Virus record (IMG/VR): IMGVR_UViG_3300010371_000001
Coordinates: 1-64,000 of that record
Strand: one strand, 5' to 3'
DNA from: a virus
DNA: 64,000 bases
A program made the position numbers and the translations under genes. Under the pieces are notes generated by a model, which was not told the DNA's origin, did not search any database, and saw nothing but the letters and a program-made list of their open reading frames with translations. This document shows, piece by piece, positions 8,181-32,910 of this stretch. How positions within the stretch are numbered: the first letter of the stretch is position 1; each line of letters opens with the position of its first letter.

Positions 8181-9836
8181 ATGAAACCACAGAAGCAGGA
8201 TCTCCTGCATTTTCAGGGCGTGCCGCCACCAGGGGACGGGGCGCGCGTCGCCACCTACCGGCGGTATAGCTCCGGAAAGCAGAAGGCCACCACGTTGCAG
8301 AAGCAGCAAGATAGCATTGAAGAATCGCTCGATGAACTGCATCCAACGTGGCGCATCCTGCCTGACGGCGAATACGCCGATCCGAAAAAGACGGCGCGCG
8401 ATGACACATTCGAGAATCGCCCCGGCTTACAGCAACTCATTGCCGACGCTCAGGCGGGGAAATTTGACGTCGTGATTGTCGAGTCTGTGGATCGGTGGTC
8501 GCGTTCATCGGCGGTGACGTGGAACACACTGGCCATCCTACATGCGTGTGGCGTCTACTGGATGACCACTGACGGCTTCGATAGCGTCACTATCCGGCAG
8601 GAAGGCACGTCGGCATCATTCGCCCACGCCGCAGAGGCAGCGGCCCAGGTGTCGCGCACGATCAGCAAGAAGGTGGTCAGGGGCAAGCGCACGCGCACGA
8701 AACAGGGCTATCATGGCAGCCACGCACCCTTTGGTTATCAGCGTGGCGAACTGGATGAGAATAACCGGCGCAACTATGAGCCGCACCCGGATCTCTTTCC
8801 GGCGCTGGCCATCATCCGTGATATGAGCATCGCAGGGCAAACGGATCAGGACATCGCCAGCGAGTTGAACCGTCAAGGGTACTACGCGCCGCCAACGGAC
8901 CAGGGCCAGCGTGTGAAGGGGTTGCATGATGAGTCAGTGCAGCACATGGATAAGCGACCGATTACCGCGCGTCTCATTGTCGGCACCCGGCACAATCGCT
9001 TCTATGTACGCTTCCAACCTGATAGCGACCGGGGTATCACCTGGACAAAGCGCGAGGGCGTGGAACGTGAGGGACGCCACGTGGCGGCATGGACGCAAGA
9101 GGAATGGGCGGCGATGCAAGCGGCAAAGCGACCGATGCAGAATCGCCCAAACGCCACGCCGCGCGCCCGGCGCACCTGGCCGTTCGGCGGCATCATGATT
9201 TGCCAGCAATGCGGACTGGTGATGCAGTGCGCCGCACATAAACGCTACAAAGAGCGGGGCGACCTTCTCTGCTACTATCAATGCCGCCGAACAAGCGCAT
9301 GCCGTCCGCAATCCGTCCGGGCTGAATACCTGGAAGATGCATTCGGCGCGCTCTTGGAACATCTGGATGATGCAGGATGGCGCGAGACACTGACGGCACT
9401 GGTACAGCAAGACGTGGAACCACCGCCTGACCACGCCGCCGAACGCGAGCGGCTAGAGACGGCCATCCGGCGCGAGAATATCAAACTTGATGCGGGCGGC
9501 ATCACAGAAGCAGAGTACAAGCGCAATGTGAAGCGGCTACGCGCGGATCTCGCTCGCGTCCCTATACCGCGCGCCAATCCGGTGCAAGAGCGCCAGCACC
9601 AGGCCGCAGAGACGATGGCAACCATCGCAAAATGCTGGCAAGCCGCGCCACTCACCGATAAGCGCGAGATGACGACCCTACTCCTGCAACAACCCGGTGC
9701 GGTGTACGACCGGCGCGATAAGCGCATCGTTGCGGTGCGACCGCATGATGAATTCGCGCTGGTGTTTCAGGCGGCACTCGGATGGGAAATGCGGGATAGT
9801 TGGCTCTGGCATCCAGCACAAAGGGAGGTCGCATGA
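8181..9836 (+). CDS. large serine recombinase (integrase-like)
   Basis: YRRYSS catalytic motif, RPGLQQL, DRWSR, PFGY recombinase domain, CQQCG..YYQC..C Zn ribbon, coiled coil. Confidence 0.92.
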   Translation: MKPQKQDLLHFQGVPPPGDGARVATYRRYSSGKQKATTLQKQQDSIEESLDELHPTWRILPDGEYADPKKTARDDTFENRPGLQQLIADAQAGKFDVVIVESVDRWSRSSAVTWNTLAILHACGVYWMTTDGFDSVTIRQEGTSASFAHAAEAAAQVSRTISKKVVRGKRTRTKQGYHGSHAPFGYQRGELDENNRRNYEPHPDLFPALAIIRDMSIAGQTDQDIASELNRQGYYAPPTDQGQRVKGLHDESVQHMDKRPITARLIVGTRHNRFYVRFQPDSDRGITWTKREGVEREGRHVAAWTQEEWAAMQAAKRPMQNRPNATPRARRTWPFGGIMICQQCGLVMQCAAHKRYKERGDLLCYYQCRRTSACRPQSVRAEYLEDAFGALLEHLDDAGWRETLTALVQQDVEPPPDHAAERERLETAIRRENIKLDAGGITEAEYKRNVKRLRADLARVPIPRANPVQERQHQAAETMATIAKCWQAAPLTDKREMTTLLLQQPGAVYDRRDKRIVAVRPHDEFALVFQAALGWEMRDSWLWHPAQREVA

Positions 9837-20951: not shown

Positions 20952-21154
20952 GTCAGTACAGAAGAACAGGCGCGCTCCGCTAAGCCCGAAAAATGGCTTA
21001 AATCCTAGACTTTTCCGTACACGCACTGGACAGTGTGTGTACACTAACGAGGTGATAGCGGTGGCGAGGCGAAAAAAGTCTGTCCCAGAGCGGCATGACG
21101 GCATACGGGCGGCTATTTATTTACGGGTCAGTACAGAAGAACAGGCGCGCTCCG
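20952..21154 (+). repeat. 28-bp exact direct repeat GTCAGTACAGAAGAACAGGCGCGCTCCG (20952-20979, 21127-21154)
   Basis: Directly visible; second copy encodes VSTEEQARS of the recombinase active site. Confidence 0.95.
21017..21042. promoter_or_regulatory. 12-2-12 inverted repeat, serine-recombinase crossover/operator-like site
   Basis: GTACACGCACTG-GA-CAGTGTGTGTAC (11/12 match), overlapping a TACACT -10 in front of the recombinase. Confidence 0.7.
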
Positions 21155-21873
21155 GTTTGGGCATCGAAGCGCAACGTGATCGCGCGATGGCCGCGCTGCG
21201 TTTACGAGATTGGGAATTCATTGGCGAATATGCCGATGAAGGGATCAGTGGTGCCAAAGATGAGAAGAAGCGGCCAGGGTTAGCACGGTTATTAGCTGAT
21301 TGTGAAGCAGGGCGCGTGGATGCAGTGGTGTTTCTTGACCTCTCGCGTTTGGGGCGTCGCACGCTGCTTATTCTCGACTTGGTGGATCGATTGGCAAAGA
21401 TGGATGTGCAGCTCGTCTCGTGCAAAGAAAATATGGACACTTCAACTGCGATGGGTAAGGCCATGTTAGGCTTCATCGCTGTGTTAGCACAGATGGAGCG
21501 CGACCTGGCGAGTGAGCGTACCCGCGCTGCATTAGCAGAGGCGGGCAAGCGTACAGGCGATAAGGGCGGCGGTGTTCCCTATGGCTATCGGCGCATTAGT
21601 AGCGTGATTATGATTGACGAGAGTGAAGCATCTGTCGTGCGTCAAATATTCTTGTGGCATAGCACGGGCGCATCTTTGCGAGAGGTAGCGTTCTGCTTAC
21701 AAGATCGCGGTGTGCCGCCACGAGGGGGAGACCGTTGGCACCATAGCGCAATACAGTGTATTCTAGCTAATGAGGCAGCGTATCGCGGTGGGAACCGTGA
21801 TAAGAGTGAGGCGCGATGGCCAGTGATTCTTGATGAGGATCTTCCGGGACGTGTGCGACCGTTAGCTTCGTAA
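21061..21873 (+). CDS. serine recombinase (resolvase + recombinase domains, no Zn ribbon)
   Basis: AAIYLRVSTEEQ, DEGISG, RPGL, LSRLGR, ERTRAAL, VPYGY; GAGGTG RBS before GTG. Confidence 0.92.
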   Translation: MARRKKSVPERHDGIRAAIYLRVSTEEQARSGLGIEAQRDRAMAALRLRDWEFIGEYADEGISGAKDEKKRPGLARLLADCEAGRVDAVVFLDLSRLGRRTLLILDLVDRLAKMDVQLVSCKENMDTSTAMGKAMLGFIAVLAQMERDLASERTRAALAEAGKRTGDKGGGVPYGYRRISSVIMIDESEASVVRQIFLWHSTGASLREVAFCLQDRGVPPRGGDRWHHSAIQCILANEAAYRGGNRDKSEARWPVILDEDLPGRVRPLAS

Positions 21874-23631: not shown

Positions 23632-23716
23632 ACGAATATTGAACTGCCACGAGTGGATGCGTGATGGCACAGGTCCGAGAACACCACCCGTGTATCGCTA
23701 TGAGAGGAAAGTACGT

Positions 23717-24088
23717 ATGCCGTCATTTACGCCACGTGAGCGACCCACCAAAGAAATTCATGCGCCGTGGTGGAGTGAGGTGCGCGATCTCCTTGGACGC
23801 TATAAAGAGCATGTCATCATTTACGCGACGCTTTCGGACGACGATGTCCGTAATCAACTGGCTGGCATAGAGGCACAAGCTGCATCAATGACTGGGCTTC
23901 TCGATCTCTTGTTTTCATTCCGGGACACCTTTCTTGTACGGATGATTGTTGAATTAACTGACGAACAAGGCAGTGTGCTCCCAGTTAGCGCAGATCTTAT
24001 CCGGCAGATGGAACCGAAGGACATACAGTTCATCTGGGATGCCATCAATGCCACAGTTGCCCCGGAAAAAGCGGAACAGAAGACATGA
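23717..24088 (+). CDS. paralog of the tail assembly chaperone (51363)
   Basis: Shares HAPWWS and MIVELTD(E/D)xG motifs and GAGAGGAAA RBS with 51363. Confidence 0.75.
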   Translation: MPSFTPRERPTKEIHAPWWSEVRDLLGRYKEHVIIYATLSDDDVRNQLAGIEAQAASMTGLLDLLFSFRDTFLVRMIVELTDEQGSVLPVSADLIRQMEPKDIQFIWDAINATVAPEKAEQKT

Positions 24089-24164
24089 GCGACTGAATGG
24101 CAGATTCTCGCGCGCCTGCCACGTGTAGGTGGCGTAACGGCCCCGTTCTGCGAGGCCAGCACCT

Positions 24165-24269
24165 GAGGGCGTAGCTCAGTTGGCAGAGCAGCGGCATAGC
24201 GAGCAATGCTCTTGCGAGAGCGGTTCAGACGCCGCAATTGCGCAGGTTCAATTCCTGCCGCCCTCTCCA
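24165..24269 (+). tRNA. tRNA-like RNA with a 35-nt anticodon loop (intron-containing or pseudo-tRNA; identity unclear)
   Basis: Acceptor GAGGGCG/CGCCCTC+TCCA, D arm GCTC/GAGC, anticodon stem GCGGC/GCCGC, T arm GCAGG-TTCAATT-CCTGC. Confidence 0.85.
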
Positions 24270-24281
24270 CAGGATACCCCC

Positions 24282-24938
24282 ATGCCTGCATCCCACTCCA
24301 CCCTCGCCCTACGCATCGCTGACATCACCCGTCAAGCGACGGCACTCATCGTCGCCCTCGTCACCGCAGATATCCAGCGGTCCTGGGCGATGGTGGAGTG
24401 GGACGAAAATCTGCATCCACGTGGCTCCAATGGTAAGTTCATTGGTGGCTCCGGGTTGCAAGCTGAACGTGAGGCGTATCATGCCGAGCATGCCATCGCG
24501 CGCTTCAACAAGGCGGCGGACGCCATGCATTTGCAAGGGGCATTACGGGAGCATGCTGCGAAAGCCTTTCACCTTTTGCTGCACAATGGTCAGGATATCC
24601 AGAGCATCGCTGCACTCCATGCGCACCATGAAGCGATGACCCGCCAGGCGGCGGAGCAGGCGCGGTGGGATACACGGGATCGCGAGGAGTCCCATCGCCT
24701 CGTGTATCTGCGCACGAAATATGCCTCTGCCCTCAAATTCGACACCACGCTTTCTGCCTATTCACGTGGCCGTCTTCAGCGTGAGATTGACATCATCGAC
24801 CGCTATTTGGCGCGCATGTGGATTCCTGCTCCCGTGCGGTTACGCCTGCCCGCAGACCAGAAGGCGAGCATTCGCGCTCAGGTGCAGCAGGGAATAGCCG
24901 CCGACCGCTCAGCCCCTGTCACGGCAATGACGGAGTAA
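24282..24938 (+). CDS. putative head-packaged cargo protein 1
   Basis: Leader helix ..ADIQR|S then WDENLHPRGSNGKFIGG. Confidence 0.7.
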   Translation: MPASHSTLALRIADITRQATALIVALVTADIQRSWAMVEWDENLHPRGSNGKFIGGSGLQAEREAYHAEHAIARFNKAADAMHLQGALREHAAKAFHLLLHNGQDIQSIAALHAHHEAMTRQAAEQARWDTRDREESHRLVYLRTKYASALKFDTTLSAYSRGRLQREIDIIDRYLARMWIPAPVRLRLPADQKASIRAQVQQGIAADRSAPVTAMTE

Positions 24939-28938: not shown

Positions 28939-31900
28939 ATGAGTCGCCAGCGCCGCCGATCACAACCGAAACCCGACGCCGCGCTGGTGCAGAAGCTGGA
29001 CGCCCTCACGACGCAGATGGCGGAATTGACGCGGCGCATGTCACCAGCGGACGCTGCTCGTGGCACACCCCTGCCCGCACATCTCGTCAACCCGCCACGC
29101 CAGCAACGCACGCCGCAACTGGATCAGGTGGCGGTAAAGGGCGATTCGGCGATGGGCGTGCCATCACAGCAACTCATGAACGAGATGCTGAAGAATCAGG
29201 CACCGCAAGCGGGGGCAGTCGGCATCTATGCGCCTGGTGCGCCGCTGCAAGTGGTGCCTGGCATCGAGTCGCCGTATGGCCCGCGCATCTGGGACTTTCC
29301 GTATGGCTACAACATCGCCGCCCTGCCACGCAGCACCGAGGCAACAGCGTTCCAGGAACTGCGCGACCTCTCGGATCTCTACTATGGCATTCGACTGTGC
29401 CAGCGCGTCTGGTTCGATGTCATCAATCGCCTGGAACTGAAGATATCCTTTGAGCCGGGCGTCATCCCGGATGGCGAATCCGAGACGGATGCCAAGTGGA
29501 AGAAGTTCACCCAGCCCGTGCGTGATTTCCTGGCCTATCCTGATGGGCAAAACAGTCTATCCGACTGGCTCATCATGAGTGTGTCGGATGTACAGGAACT
29601 GGGCCAGAGCATCATCTTCAAGAACCGTAATAAGAAGGGCGAGATCATCGCCCTGGATGTGGTGGACGCGGCGTTGGTGAAACCGCTCCTGGATCAGCGT
29701 GGCCGTCTACCCAAGCCCCCCTATCCGGCATTTGAGCAATTCATCAAAGGCATCCCAGCAGGGCTGTATGTTGGGGACACCGATGTCACGCAAGAGTGGA
29801 CCTCCTCACAGATGCACCTCATCCGCGAGATGGCGCGCACCAACTCGGTGTATTCGCGCTCGCGTGTTGAGGACATTCTGCTCATCATCAATCAGGCATT
29901 GCGCAAACAGAACTTGGATCTGACGCGCTACACCGATGGCTCAACCCCTGAGGGCATGGTGTTCGTGGATCCTAGTTATGCTGAGGGATCGCCTGAGGAG
30001 TGGGGAGAAGTTGAGCGTTCGTTAAATGGGGTGTACGCCGGTAACGACCGCATGCGCGCCAGACTTAAAATCATGCCGCCAGGACTGAAAGACTACACCA
30101 ACACGCGCAGCCCTGACCCACAGATCGACTTCGATATGTGGCTGCTGAAAATTACCTGTGGCTCATTCGGCGTGACAATGGCCGAGATTGGCATCACTGA
30201 TGATGTGAACCGCTCTACCGGCGATTCACAGGAGAATGTCATCTATCGCCGCGTGGTGCAACCCCTGGCCGTGAGGTATGCACAGTTCCTCACGGAAGTG
30301 GTGAAAGAACGCTTCGACAAGCGCATGCGAGTGGAATGGGGCGGCATTGAGGAGCAAGAGGATCGGCTGGCTAAAGCGCAAGAGTTGGACATCCTCGTCA
30401 AGAATGGCAGCATCAGCCCCAGTCGGGCGGCACGGGAGATGGGCTATGAGGTCGATACGGAAGTGCCTGCCTTTGTGCTATTCAATGGTGGCCCCACGGC
30501 GGCGATTGTCATGGATGACCTGGACGCCCTGCGCAAGAGTCAGTTGGAGTCGTTCCAGACGCAGACCGAGCAGGCCAAAGCCGGGCTGAAGAACACCCAA
30601 CTCCAAGCCGAGCAGTTGCAAATGGTCATCAAGCAGCAACAGCAGCAGGGTAGCCAGCAACAAGGCGAGGACCAGGGCGGCGAAGGCCAGGGGCAAGGCG
30701 AGGGCAACGAGCCTGAGCCGAATGGTCCCGGTGGCAACTCTGACTCAGGTAATAAGCAGCAAGGCGAGCAAGAATCTGAGGGGGAAGCATCTCCTGAGGA
30801 TGAGGGCGAGCCTGGCGGCAATGAGGACCAGGACCAGGGCGCATCCGAGCAGCCAGGAGAAAGCGAAGGCGAAGAGACGGGGCCGGATGATGAGGCGGCG
30901 CGCGAGGTAGATCGCCTCATTGCGCAAGCTAAGGCACGTCAGAGCAAGGGCAAGCAGCAGCGCATGCATGTGGCAGATGATGTCACTGCCGTCTCCGACG
31001 AGTGGCGGCGCTACCGTGATGTCGCCCTGCGCGCCGTGAAGCGCCAGCAGAGCGTGCCAACGTTCACCAGCGACGTGATGCCCAGCAACCTCCACACCTA
31101 CGCCGCTGAGGCGCTACAGCGTGCCACGACGCCTGATGATGTGCGCCAGGTGTTCGCTGATGTGCGTGATGCTGAGACGCATCCGAGTGAGTGCCGCTGC
31201 ATGGTGTGCGGGTGCGGTGAACCGCTCAATGATCACGGAAAACCTTACATCACGGCAGGCACGGCGGGCAATGTCCCAGGCGATGCCCCCGTCTACCCGA
31301 ACCTCATGCCGCCAGTGGATGAGTGCTTCGTCGCGCTGTTTGTGCCTGCGCATGTAGGGCAACCCCTAGCCGACCTTGTGGGCTGGGAGAACTGTGATCC
31401 GAAAGATTTGTATGTGTCGCTGGCATCGCTAGGGCATGAGACTGATATTGATGATGTAGATATTCTCTGTGCGACGGTGCAAGCATGGGCTAAAACACAG
31501 CATTCCATCGTAGCCCGCATCACTGGCTATGGACGCGCTCCTGATGACATTGGCGATGCGGTTTATGCCGTTGTGCAAAGTGATGCACTTCCAGCAGTGC
31601 GACAGGATTTGCTGGGGGCATTACACGCAGCATTGAATGGTGCGGGTCTACCGGTTGTGGATGACCCCGGCTATTCGCCTCGTATCGTGCTGGCACACCT
31701 TGATCCGGCATCACCCATGCCTGAGACGATTGCGCATGTGCCGACCAATGGTGATGCGTTCGCACTCTCTTATGTGTGGGTTGTGTCTGGGCAATACCGT
31801 TGGGCCTATCCCCTCGGCGGCGATGATGGCGAGCGTGTCACCGTCGTGGATGAACTGCGCAGTCTGCGGGCCGAGATCCAGCGCGCCATCACAGCGGAGA

Positions 31901-32910
31901 TGACACCGCAGCACGTGCGCTGGGCAGAGCATGAGATTGTGCGCGGAACTGGCGGCAAGATCATCGGCAACATCTATGCTGGCGTGTTCCATCCTGCCGA
32001 CGGTGTGACCCATGAGCATGTGCGTCAGGCATTGGCCCTGCACGAGGCGAGCAGCGAGAAGCACCAGGCGCTGGCAGCGTACCTGAGTCGCCAGGAATTA
32101 TCTGGGCGATTATCCGCAGCCATTCATAGGGAGGTTGAAGCCCGTAGCGAATCAGCAATTTCAGTAATGCGCCCAGGTCGCGGCGCATCTGATCGACAAT
32201 GGGCCGAGTATAATGCTTGGAAAGCCGCTAAAGAATCCTATGAGGAAGCGCAGGCACAGGCACAACCATTGAAAGATGCAATGGCAGCATTACTCAATCG
32301 GGATGCACAAGCAAAAGGTGTCACTCTTCGTGTTGAGTCACCGGGGGTTTTTGAAAACCTTCTTGCCATTTGGCCTCACTTGCCATCCGGTGGCGATATT
32401 GCCGCTTTATTGCATGCACAGAAAGGCGATACCGTTACTCTTGGTACATCAGGGAAGATCACCCTGCAAGGGTCTCATGAAGCCTATGGGTTTATCCGTC
32501 GTCGTCACGATAATGGGCTGATTGAGTTTAGCGCTCCTACGGTGCGCGTAGCCCGTGGCGAACGTTCAGCGGCATCTGGGCGTGACATTGTACGTACATT
32601 TGCCCATATGCAATACATGGGAATCCAACGCTTAACGGCTCAGGCCGAGCGAGGTCAAGATTGGAACGGGTATTATACCTGGGCACGCATAGGGTTTGTT
32701 GGTGATATCCCCGAACCAGTACGTGCGGCGGCACAAGATCGTTTTGGCAAAAACGTGACCCGCGTGGAACAAATCATGGCACTTCCAGGTGGCGCGAAAT
32801 GGTGGAAAAACAACGGCGTTACATGGGATGCTGCGTTTGATTTTACCGATGGGAGCCTTTCACGTCAAGTGTTTGACCGCCTCGTCAAAAGTTTGGAGGG
32901 TTCTGACTAA
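28939..32910 (+). CDS. portal protein with large C-terminal extension (acidic linker, degenerate 2H domain, cargo leader, GNAT-like domain)
   Basis: Follows terL; portal core (..VKPLLDQRGR..YSRSRVE..PEG..ICGSFGV-like TCGSFGVTMAEIG..VNRSTG); 1323 aa. Confidence 0.9.
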   Translation: MSRQRRRSQPKPDAALVQKLDALTTQMAELTRRMSPADAARGTPLPAHLVNPPRQQRTPQLDQVAVKGDSAMGVPSQQLMNEMLKNQAPQAGAVGIYAPGAPLQVVPGIESPYGPRIWDFPYGYNIAALPRSTEATAFQELRDLSDLYYGIRLCQRVWFDVINRLELKISFEPGVIPDGESETDAKWKKFTQPVRDFLAYPDGQNSLSDWLIMSVSDVQELGQSIIFKNRNKKGEIIALDVVDAALVKPLLDQRGRLPKPPYPAFEQFIKGIPAGLYVGDTDVTQEWTSSQMHLIREMARTNSVYSRSRVEDILLIINQALRKQNLDLTRYTDGSTPEGMVFVDPSYAEGSPEEWGEVERSLNGVYAGNDRMRARLKIMPPGLKDYTNTRSPDPQIDFDMWLLKITCGSFGVTMAEIGITDDVNRSTGDSQENVIYRRVVQPLAVRYAQFLTEVVKERFDKRMRVEWGGIEEQEDRLAKAQELDILVKNGSISPSRAAREMGYEVDTEVPAFVLFNGGPTAAIVMDDLDALRKSQLESFQTQTEQAKAGLKNTQLQAEQLQMVIKQQQQQGSQQQGEDQGGEGQGQGEGNEPEPNGPGGNSDSGNKQQGEQESEGEASPEDEGEPGGNEDQDQGASEQPGESEGEETGPDDEAAREVDRLIAQAKARQSKGKQQRMHVADDVTAVSDEWRRYRDVALRAVKRQQSVPTFTSDVMPSNLHTYAAEALQRATTPDDVRQVFADVRDAETHPSECRCMVCGCGEPLNDHGKPYITAGTAGNVPGDAPVYPNLMPPVDECFVALFVPAHVGQPLADLVGWENCDPKDLYVSLASLGHETDIDDVDILCATVQAWAKTQHSIVARITGYGRAPDDIGDAVYAVVQSDALPAVRQDLLGALHAALNGAGLPVVDDPGYSPRIVLAHLDPASPMPETIAHVPTNGDAFALSYVWVVSGQYRWAYPLGGDDGERVTVVDELRSLRAEIQRAITAEMTPQHVRWAEHEIVRGTGGKIIGNIYAGVFHPADGVTHEHVRQALALHEASSEKHQALAAYLSRQELSGRLSAAIHREVEARSESAISVMRPGRGASDRQWAEYNAWKAAKESYEEAQAQAQPLKDAMAALLNRDAQAKGVTLRVESPGVFENLLAIWPHLPSGGDIAALLHAQKGDTVTLGTSGKITLQGSHEAYGFIRRRHDNGLIEFSAPTVRVARGERSAASGRDIVRTFAHMQYMGIQRLTAQAERGQDWNGYYTWARIGFVGDIPEPVRAAAQDRFGKNVTRVEQIMALPGGAKWWKNNGVTWDAAFDFTDGSLSRQVFDRLVKSLEGSD

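Follow-up and report, generated by a model that had tools for sequence, protein, structure and literature searches.

What is the use of a phage gene that keeps the body of a tRNA and carries 35 nucleotides in place of its anticodon loop? This question is raised by positions 24165–24269 of a complete phage genome from IMG/VR (record IMGVR_UViG_3300010371_000001; 102,273 bp with direct terminal repeats, recovered from a soil metagenome), whose first 64 kb form the stretch analysed here (the window). The original prediction for this locus had proposed a protein-spliced mini-intron, an anticodon-less decoy or an RNase P/Z processing signal. We find that the element is a genuine tRNA-shaped gene. 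Three more points are firm at the level of sequence: the frame belongs to the tRNA-Lys type, the RNA is unable to decode, and the gene occupies a slot whose content is swapped fast. The reading that we put forward, in an evenly balanced judgement, is that of a disabled phage copy of a tRNA-Lys, at most still serving as processing punctuation. What is new here is the probable origin of the element from a Planctomycetota-type tRNA-Lys(UUU) frame, the lysine tRNA of the probable host.

The tRNA-shaped gene and its replaced anticodon loop

The tRNA model of Rfam (RF00005) matches the element end to end with 50.5 bits, compared with a gathering score of 29 (E = 7e-8 for the window). All of the model positions 1–71 are matched, and a 35-nt insertion falls at the site of the 7-nt anticodon loop. 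The four stems pair perfectly and are followed by U73 and an encoded CCA, exactly as predicted: all pairs are Watson–Crick, with 7 bp in the acceptor stem, 4 bp in the D stem, 5 bp in the anticodon stem and 5 bp in the T stem. No Rfam family other than tRNA is found at the element. It is moreover the sole tRNA-type gene of the 102,273-bp genome (ARAGORN on the whole genome; Rfam on the window and the remaining 38 kb). Its parts are as follows.

24165–24171 with 24259–24265, plus strand: acceptor stem, 7 bp, GAGGGCG/CGCCCUC.
24174–24189, plus strand: D arm, GCUC / AGUUGGCA / GAGC, with A14, G15 and G18-G19 intact; identical to D arms of Planctomycetota tRNA-Lys(UUU).
24191–24195, plus strand: 5' strand of the anticodon stem, GCGGC, pairing with 24231–24235; this stem is shared with the host-type tRNA-Lys of L053.
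24196–24230, plus strand: replaced anticodon loop, 35 nt for the 7-nt YUUUUAA, without a usable anticodon.
24208–24221, plus strand: inner hairpin GCUCU-UGCG-AGAGC with a UNCG-type tetraloop; its stem letters GCUC/GAGC are those of the D stem.
24231–24235, plus strand: 3' strand of the anticodon stem, GCCGC.
24236–24241, plus strand: variable loop AAUUGC, 6 nt, for the family-invariant NGGUC, with C48 kept.
24242–24258, plus strand: T arm, GCAGG / UUCAAUU / CCUGC; stem identical to that of the tRNA-Lys of L052 and L062, loop different only at position 57 (A for G).
24266–24269, plus strand: discriminator U73 and encoded CCA (24267–24269).
24214–24241, plus strand: predicted alternative long hairpin, GCGA (24214–24217) with UUGC (24238–24241) and GCGGU (24220–24224) with GCCGC (24231–24235).

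U8-A9 lies between the acceptor and D stems, and the nucleotides that hold the L-shape together are all present in the sequence (U8, A14, R15-Y48, G18-G19, T54-psi55-C56 and A58), so that an L-shaped fold would be compatible with these intact tertiary contacts. The variable loop has 6 nt, compared with the usual 4–5. What is missing is an anticodon loop of 7 nt in which U33 precedes an anticodon and a purine stands at position 37: the loop here is 35 nt long. Default ARAGORN calls no tRNA at 24165–24269. When introns are allowed, a check that had been recommended for this locus, it reports a tRNA-Leu(cag) with a 28-nt intron at position 32.

The 35-nt loop and its hairpin were correctly located by the original prediction, which also called the loop structured. 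The hairpin is there, but the 45-nt anticodon arm as a whole folds no better than shuffled sequences (z = -1.4; 17 of 200 shuffles fold as well). According to RNAfold, the cloverleaf with the 27–31/67–71 stem has an energy of -45.6 kcal/mol, compared with -47.0 kcal/mol for the minimum-energy fold. In the latter, GCCGC is predicted to pair with the inner GCGGU and GCGA with the UUGC of the variable loop, and these alternative pairs make up about 85% of the predicted ensemble. The content of the region gave no lead either: no exact 12-mer match to 24191–24241 exists on either strand of the phage genome (six 11-mers are found, about as many as expected by chance), no antisense target or repeat of the insert stands out within the phage above these chance 11-mers, and the central 60 nt hit 19 of the 401 Planctomycetota genomes searched at E values up to 0.05, which equals the chance expectation.

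Probable lysine tRNA ancestry and the variable slot

The 105 nt were compared by BLAST with these 401 genomes, Planctomycetota being the only phylum covered by BLAST. Nucleotides 1–31, which comprise the 5' strand of the acceptor stem, the D arm and the 5' strand of the anticodon stem, are 94–97% identical to planctomycete tRNA-Lys(UUU) (BLAST and ARAGORN), and nucleotides 77–101 (the T arm and the 3' strand of the acceptor stem) are 96% identical to the tRNA-Lys(UUU) of another planctomycete. Over the 67 positions of the frame, the best single match is the tRNA-Lys(UUU) of L052, with 58 identities, and eight of the top 11 frame matches are tRNA-Lys(UUU). We further placed nine planctomycete tRNA-Lys(UUU) of 73 nt in register with the element. 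Outside the anticodon and variable loops, 59 of 61 positions lie within the variation of this family, including all 42 stem nucleotides, the whole D loop and positions 8–9 and 26. The frame departs from the family only in having A instead of G at position 57 and U instead of A as discriminator. All nine tRNAs have the anticodon loop YUUUUAA, the variable loop xGGUC and A73; the phage RNA has neither a UUU within YUUUUAA nor A73. The element thus reads as a tRNA-Lys frame in which three single-stranded regions, namely the anticodon loop, the variable loop and the discriminator, appear to have been replaced as blocks.

We consider it likely that this frame descends from a tRNA-Lys. Our confidence stops there because the margin to the next-best isotype is modest (56/67 for tRNA-Met, compared with 58/67 for tRNA-Lys), because the nine tRNAs were picked by similarity and because a single phylum was covered by BLAST; these points also count against the reading of the element as a lysine tRNA copy. 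Normal tRNA-Lys(UUU) genes whose D and anticodon arms match those of the element occur on 29 IMG/VR contigs. These viral tRNAs come from unrelated phages and are less similar to the element than the cellular tRNA-Lys.

The discriminator has its own parallel. We scanned one genome per species (185,579 species) for the acceptor stem followed by U73 with tRNA-like spacing. Matches were found in only three genomes, all of them Planctomycetota and all in tRNA-Gly genes, so that U73 on the same acceptor stem as in the phage RNA does exist in planctomycete tRNA-Gly. An earlier genome-wide pattern combining the D arm, the T loop and the acceptor stem had given no match. In one planctomycete metagenome-assembled genome (MAG; G006), a tRNA-Gly(UCC) (L037) and a tRNA-Lys(UUU) (L048) share their 7-bp acceptor stem and differ at the discriminator, U and A, respectively. 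The change from A73 to U in the phage would therefore produce an acceptor end of the glycine type.

The tRNA match suggests a host among the Planctomycetota. The same host is weakly suggested by the terminase: two contigs of one planctomycete MAG (G205) carry a terminase 50–51% identical to that of the phage, which equals its best relatives in IMG/VR. This MAG also contains about 30 tRNA genes within 4.5 kb of one contig (G205:C13:12659-17077), and a contig that bears a terminase carries six further tRNAs at its end (G205:C44:69701-70556).

The surroundings of the element are organized as follows.

23639–24088, plus strand: upstream gene, 149 aa, no Pfam or PHROG family match.
24089–24164, plus strand: leader from the stop codon of the upstream open reading frame to the tRNA-shaped gene, ending in U(-1); common to close relatives.
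24165–24269, plus strand: tRNA-shaped gene, 105 nt, defined by Rfam RF00005, aragorn -i and the comparison with planctomycete tRNA-Lys.
24165–24281, plus strand: variable slot, comprising the tRNA-shaped gene and 12 nt with an AGGA ribosome-binding site; wholly different in close relatives.
24282–24938, plus strand: downstream gene, 218 aa, no known family.
Beyond the downstream gene: terminase small subunit (25204), terminase large subunit (26209) and portal (28939), according to Pfam and PHROG.

Contigs of four other soil runs were aligned to 23700–24700. In the first relative (X3), the sequence is collinear over 23708–24165, with 15 differences over 458 nt. From 24166 onwards it reads as the 5' half of a different tRNA (acceptor strand GGGAUGA, then UA and a D stem GCUC/GAGC). 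The contig rejoins the window exactly at 24282, with three differences up to 24700, after a replacement of at least 255 nt of unrelated sequence. The second relative (X2) is collinear to 24168, with a single difference over 336 nt, and no tRNA can be read from the 30 nt visible beyond. The replacement sequences of both were seen as 30-nt loose ends. The flanks of X2 and X3 are thus at least 97% identical to the window and the leader 24089–24164 is kept, with an unrelated sequence in place of 24165–24281. This region is a cassette that is swapped between otherwise near-identical phages, in a tRNA slot that turns over fast. A run labelled transcriptomic (X20) yielded nothing beyond a bacterial tRNA-Lys and a piece of the upstream gene.

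More distant relatives do not extend the comparison. In IMG/VR, the terminase has only relatives of about 50% identity or lower, none of those searched has a tRNA beside its terminase, and four of the five whole relative records are devoid of any tRNA. Homologues of the element itself were sought, as had been advised, in order to look for covariation. None was found in IMG/VR (exact and gapped patterns, and a scaffold with an enlarged loop), in the JGI metagenomes (a flank pattern) or among GenBank phages, where blastn returned only generic tRNA 5' halves. With the 401 Planctomycetota genomes added, these searches gave no second copy, and hence no covariation.

What the element may be

We favour a disabled phage tRNA-Lys copy because the element is not conserved, because the closest relatives lack it, because the slot turns over quickly and because the nucleases of the PrrC type read the very loop that is missing. 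The original prediction held that the intact stems argue against simple decay. This argument is weak, since the differences from tRNA-Lys are a few block replacements in a slot of quick turnover. Precisely because there are block replacements rather than scattered drift in such a slot, the cassette may simply be young.

LysRS (lysyl-tRNA synthetase) recognizes two known determinants, the anticodon and A73. Both are gone here, and the RNA would not be charged by this enzyme. The gene would be transcribed together with its plus-strand neighbours, RNase P would cut at G24165 with U at position -1, and trimming of the 3' side to the encoded CCA would release a stable RNA of L shape, leaving the mRNA downstream with a leader of 12 nt. 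Any residual role would be that of processing punctuation ahead of the packaging genes. The ancestor may have been a working phage tRNA-Lys, perhaps directed against defences that cut tRNA-Lys and serving the many AAA codons of the phage. Such an ancestor is plausible because AAA makes up 44% of the lysine codons of the phage and because phage-encoded tRNA-Lys is known to rescue phages from two defences, namely PARIS AriB, a nuclease that reads the anticodon stem-loop and cleaves tRNA-Lys at 40/41 (PMC11464382), and PrrC170 (PMC11555353).

Several further points weigh against this reading of the element as a disabled copy. The changes all avoid the 42 stem nucleotides and the tertiary contacts, with a chance probability of about 0.03–0.07 if three or four independent events occurred, which hints at selection for the tRNA shape. 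The anticodon loop appears replaced, not merely interrupted, so that a single insertion would not explain it. The complementarity between GCGA in the insert and UUGC in the variable loop extends the alternative arm to 9 bp, and the two replacements thus look linked. Finally, it should be noted that we infer transcription and processing of the element from its sequence.

These points lead to the alternative that survives best, although we hold it only tentatively: a selected, non-decoding mimic of tRNA-Lys, i.e. a stable tRNA-framed RNA that would be neither charged nor read. Such an RNA could soak up or mislead a host factor that recognizes the tRNA-Lys body, for instance a defence nuclease, or it could display the 35-nt hairpin on a tRNA scaffold; it would act as bait, sponge or switch, and the two near-isoenergetic folds predicted above might provide the switch. 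The avoidance of stems and tertiary contacts speaks for it, as do the new variable loop complementary to the insert and the position of the element as the only tRNA-type gene of the phage. Its frame is perfectly kept, with CCA and tertiary-contact nucleotides intact, while all of the recognition elements for LysRS and the anticodon nucleases have changed. Moreover, the anticodon stem, which PARIS AriB reads and cuts at 40/41 (PMC11464382), is identical to host-type stems. However, no homologue of the design was found in IMG/VR or the Planctomycetota genomes, with neither conservation nor covariation, the closest relatives are without the element and the fold of the insert is no better than that of shuffles. 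A sponge would also have to outnumber the tRNA-Lys of the host. Of the anticodon-less decoy proposed at the outset, what stands is that the frame is that of tRNA-Lys, the target of PrrC and PARIS; it is weakened by the loss of the anticodon loop that those nucleases read and by the lack of any conserved family among the sequences searched.

Comparison with known systems helps to situate this alternative. The closest natural sequences remain the tRNA-Lys(UUU) of Planctomycetota (L050, L052, L053 and L062), which share with the element the acceptor stem GAGGGCG/CGCCCUC, the D arm, the stems GCGGC/GCCGC and GCAGG/CCUGC, U8, A14 and G18-G19, and differ from it by YUUUUAA instead of 35 nt, NGGUC instead of AAUUGC, G57 instead of A and A73 instead of U. 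The tRNA-Lys of T5 that acts against PARIS AriB (PMC11464382) and the tRNA-Lys that acts against PrrC170 (PMC11555353) are likewise phage-borne lysine-tRNA derivatives with changes centred on the anticodon arm. However, anti-defence tRNAs of the T5 type keep UUU and restore translation, whereas the RNA described here has no anticodon and could not work in this way. YrlA, a Y RNA (Rfam RF02553; PMC4201824), has a tRNA-like fold and would resemble the element as a non-decoding RNA, but it has no free acceptor-CCA end and works with Ro60 (PMC4201824), whereas the phage RNA has a full acceptor stem and CCA. We discarded a mimic of the Y-RNA type: no TROVE/Ro60 gene (PF05731) was found in the phage, the acceptor stem and CCA are intact and Rfam recognizes only a tRNA.

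An engineered counterpart reportedly exists in the tRNA scaffold of Ponchon and Dardel (2007), in which a foreign structured RNA replaces the anticodon loop of tRNA-Lys3 or tRNA-Met and is processed and stabilized like a tRNA. The likeness lies in a structured RNA standing in place of the anticodon loop; one is a laboratory design, the other a natural gene known here from sequence.

A third explanation, which we regard as improbable, is that the element acts in cis for processing or stability, so that any tRNA shape in the slot would do and the anticodon would be irrelevant. RNase P and 3' trimming would detach the packaging operon from the genes upstream and give the mRNA a short and defined 5' end, at 24270. 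The geometry of the slot agrees with this, since in three phage variants its start falls within 1–3 nt of the 5' end of the tRNA and its end coincides with the next ATG, and one relative (X3) has a different tRNA there. In addition, 12 nt separate the gene from the ATG, its neighbours on both sides share its strand, and neither a sigma-70-like promoter nor an intrinsic terminator was found between the flanking genes. Yet the X2 replacement is not readable as a tRNA from its 30 nt, and the punctuation seems dispensable, as distant relatives have no tRNA at the terminase and most whole records have none at all. The replaced variable loop and U73 are also left unexplained. The RNase P/Z processing signal first proposed is thus compatible with the data, and the other tRNA sequence at exactly the same slot in a relative lends it some credit.

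Splicing is less probable still. The proposal is that a 28-nt intron is removed by proteins to leave a 7-nt loop (CAG according to ARAGORN) and that host enzymes reseal the ends. It has in its favour that aragorn -i accepts such a gene and that phage tRNAs with unexplained introns occur in Lak megaphages (PMC6784885). The Lak 'enigmatic' introns indeed resemble the element in bringing extra sequence to the anticodon loop and in being found only in intron mode. For the Lak Thr(TGT) tRNA, however, intron-less copies fix the excision point and a sensible tRNA is left, and the insert may itself encode a tRNA (PMC6784885). The phage element has no coherent excision, and its insert, a 14-nt hairpin plus flanks, is not tRNA-shaped: we rejected an intron of the Lak type, as the 5-bp hairpin, its tetraloop and the flanks contain no T loop and no CCA.

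As originally noted, removing 28 nt yields CAG, AAG, AGG or AGC depending on the position. None of these suits the class I frame, U73, the absence of G3:U70 and the tRNA-Lys body, and a spliced tRNA of any isotype was therefore rejected. The tRNA-Leu(CAG) obtained by the sole excision that ARAGORN accepts would require a long variable arm and A73, whereas the shape here is class I with U73. An alanine tRNA (AGC) would require G3:U70, and the pair here is G3:C70. As for a lysine tRNA with an intron, no 28-nt removal gives UUU or CUU in a proper loop, and the YUUUUAA expected from the tRNA-Lys frame is restored by no excision. Five other readings were weighed and dropped: a tRNA of class II, with its long variable arm; an internal loop of 7 nt (CAAUGCU), which would have A at 33 and a pyrimidine at 37; a Lys-CUU reading through a loop CUCUUGC, for which there is no closing stem; an 8-nt loop as a frameshift suppressor; and an opal suppressor (UCA), for which there is no stem.

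The machinery for splicing is not apparent either. The introns of archaeal tRNAs, of the bulge–helix–bulge (BHB) type, and the group I introns of bacterial tRNAs also place extra sequence in the anticodon loop. The phage insert differs from both in having no BHB geometry, a length of 28 nt, no match to an Rfam intron family and no endonuclease gene found alongside. With the anticodon stem as outer helix, a BHB intron (two 3-nt bulges and a 4-bp helix) fails as GCGA cannot pair with UUCA. Bacteria are not known to have a BHB splicing endonuclease. The smallest group I introns measure about 200 nt, so that 28 nt is some seven times shorter. A group I intron was accordingly rejected on size and on the absence of any Rfam ribozyme or intron match, in agreement with the first assessment of this insert. 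Searches of the phage detected no splicing endonuclease of the EndA family (PF01974), no RtcB and no ligase of the Rnl2 or T4 Rnl1 type; the T4 Rnl1 model was silent in control genomes too, which makes that blank a weak one. The protein-spliced mini-intron has thus lost its footing: an intron-bearing tRNA is unlikely because no excision restores the loop and because no BHB, ribozyme, ligase or endonuclease was found.

Least probable of all is a recombination site or scar. The element would then be an attP-like version of the tRNA-Lys gene of the host, or it would have arisen when tRNA genes underwent illegitimate recombination or duplication. Recombination is active at the slot, integration commonly targets tRNA-Lys genes, and the insert bears a weak likeness to the D arm and anticodon-stem 5' strand (GCUC..UU.GC.GAG.AGCGG; shuffle p 0.057), as does segment 32–71 to the variable loop and T arm (p 0.046), but the genome has direct terminal repeats and no tyrosine integrase (PF00589) was found in the phage. 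Its three recombinases are of the serine type and make no use of attP sites derived from tRNAs; an attP normally copies only the 3' part of a tRNA, whereas here the 5' part is best conserved; and a scar as origin is compatible with a disabled copy and is not a separate function. The two weak self-alignments, individually non-significant and partly conflicting, hint at an origin by duplication or recombination between tRNA sequences. The three serine recombinase genes lie at 8250–8708 and 21109–21552 of the window and at 90016–90393 of the genome; the one at 8250 is part of an open frame of 634 aa, a length that matches a large serine recombinase.

The neighbouring genes and the meaning of the element

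The RNA ends 12 nt ahead of the ATG at 24282, as predicted, and AGGA occupies 24271–24274. The start of the downstream gene is fixed at 24282, since its two database homologues (P0001 and P0002) both begin with MP and since X3 rejoins the window there. The 218-aa protein itself belongs to no Pfam or PHROG family and its protein-atlas matches are at noise level; it has no relative in IMG/VR, and one exact partial copy was found in the JGI metagenomes, whose contig includes no DNA upstream of it. The first 120 nt of this coding sequence include an inverted repeat (24291–24309 and 24385–24403; 19 nt, 95% complementary, arms 75 nt apart), which could form a long hairpin just past the start codon. 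Further downstream, the portal gene (28939–32910) is unusually long, with 1323 aa. Its portal domain covers residues 185–494 according to Pfam or about 190–750 according to PHROG, and several hundred residues of the C-terminal extension have no domain assigned by either.

The element also calls for caution with tRNA finders, which in intron mode can give a spurious 'intron' together with a spurious isotype, here Leu(CAG). Its lysine tRNA frame links an uncultured 102-kb phage to the Planctomycetota, a phylum for which few phages are known. Phage tRNA genes are known to serve as tools of counter-defence, and tRNA-Lys is the best-documented case. If the element proves to be no more than a disabled gene, it matters less: it would reveal a tRNA slot ahead of the packaging genes, the content of which is swapped between near-identical soil phages. 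If instead it has been selected, the tactic would be one of mimicry rather than replacement, with the frame kept and the parts for decoding and charging dropped, and it would be a natural precedent for the engineered tRNA scaffold.

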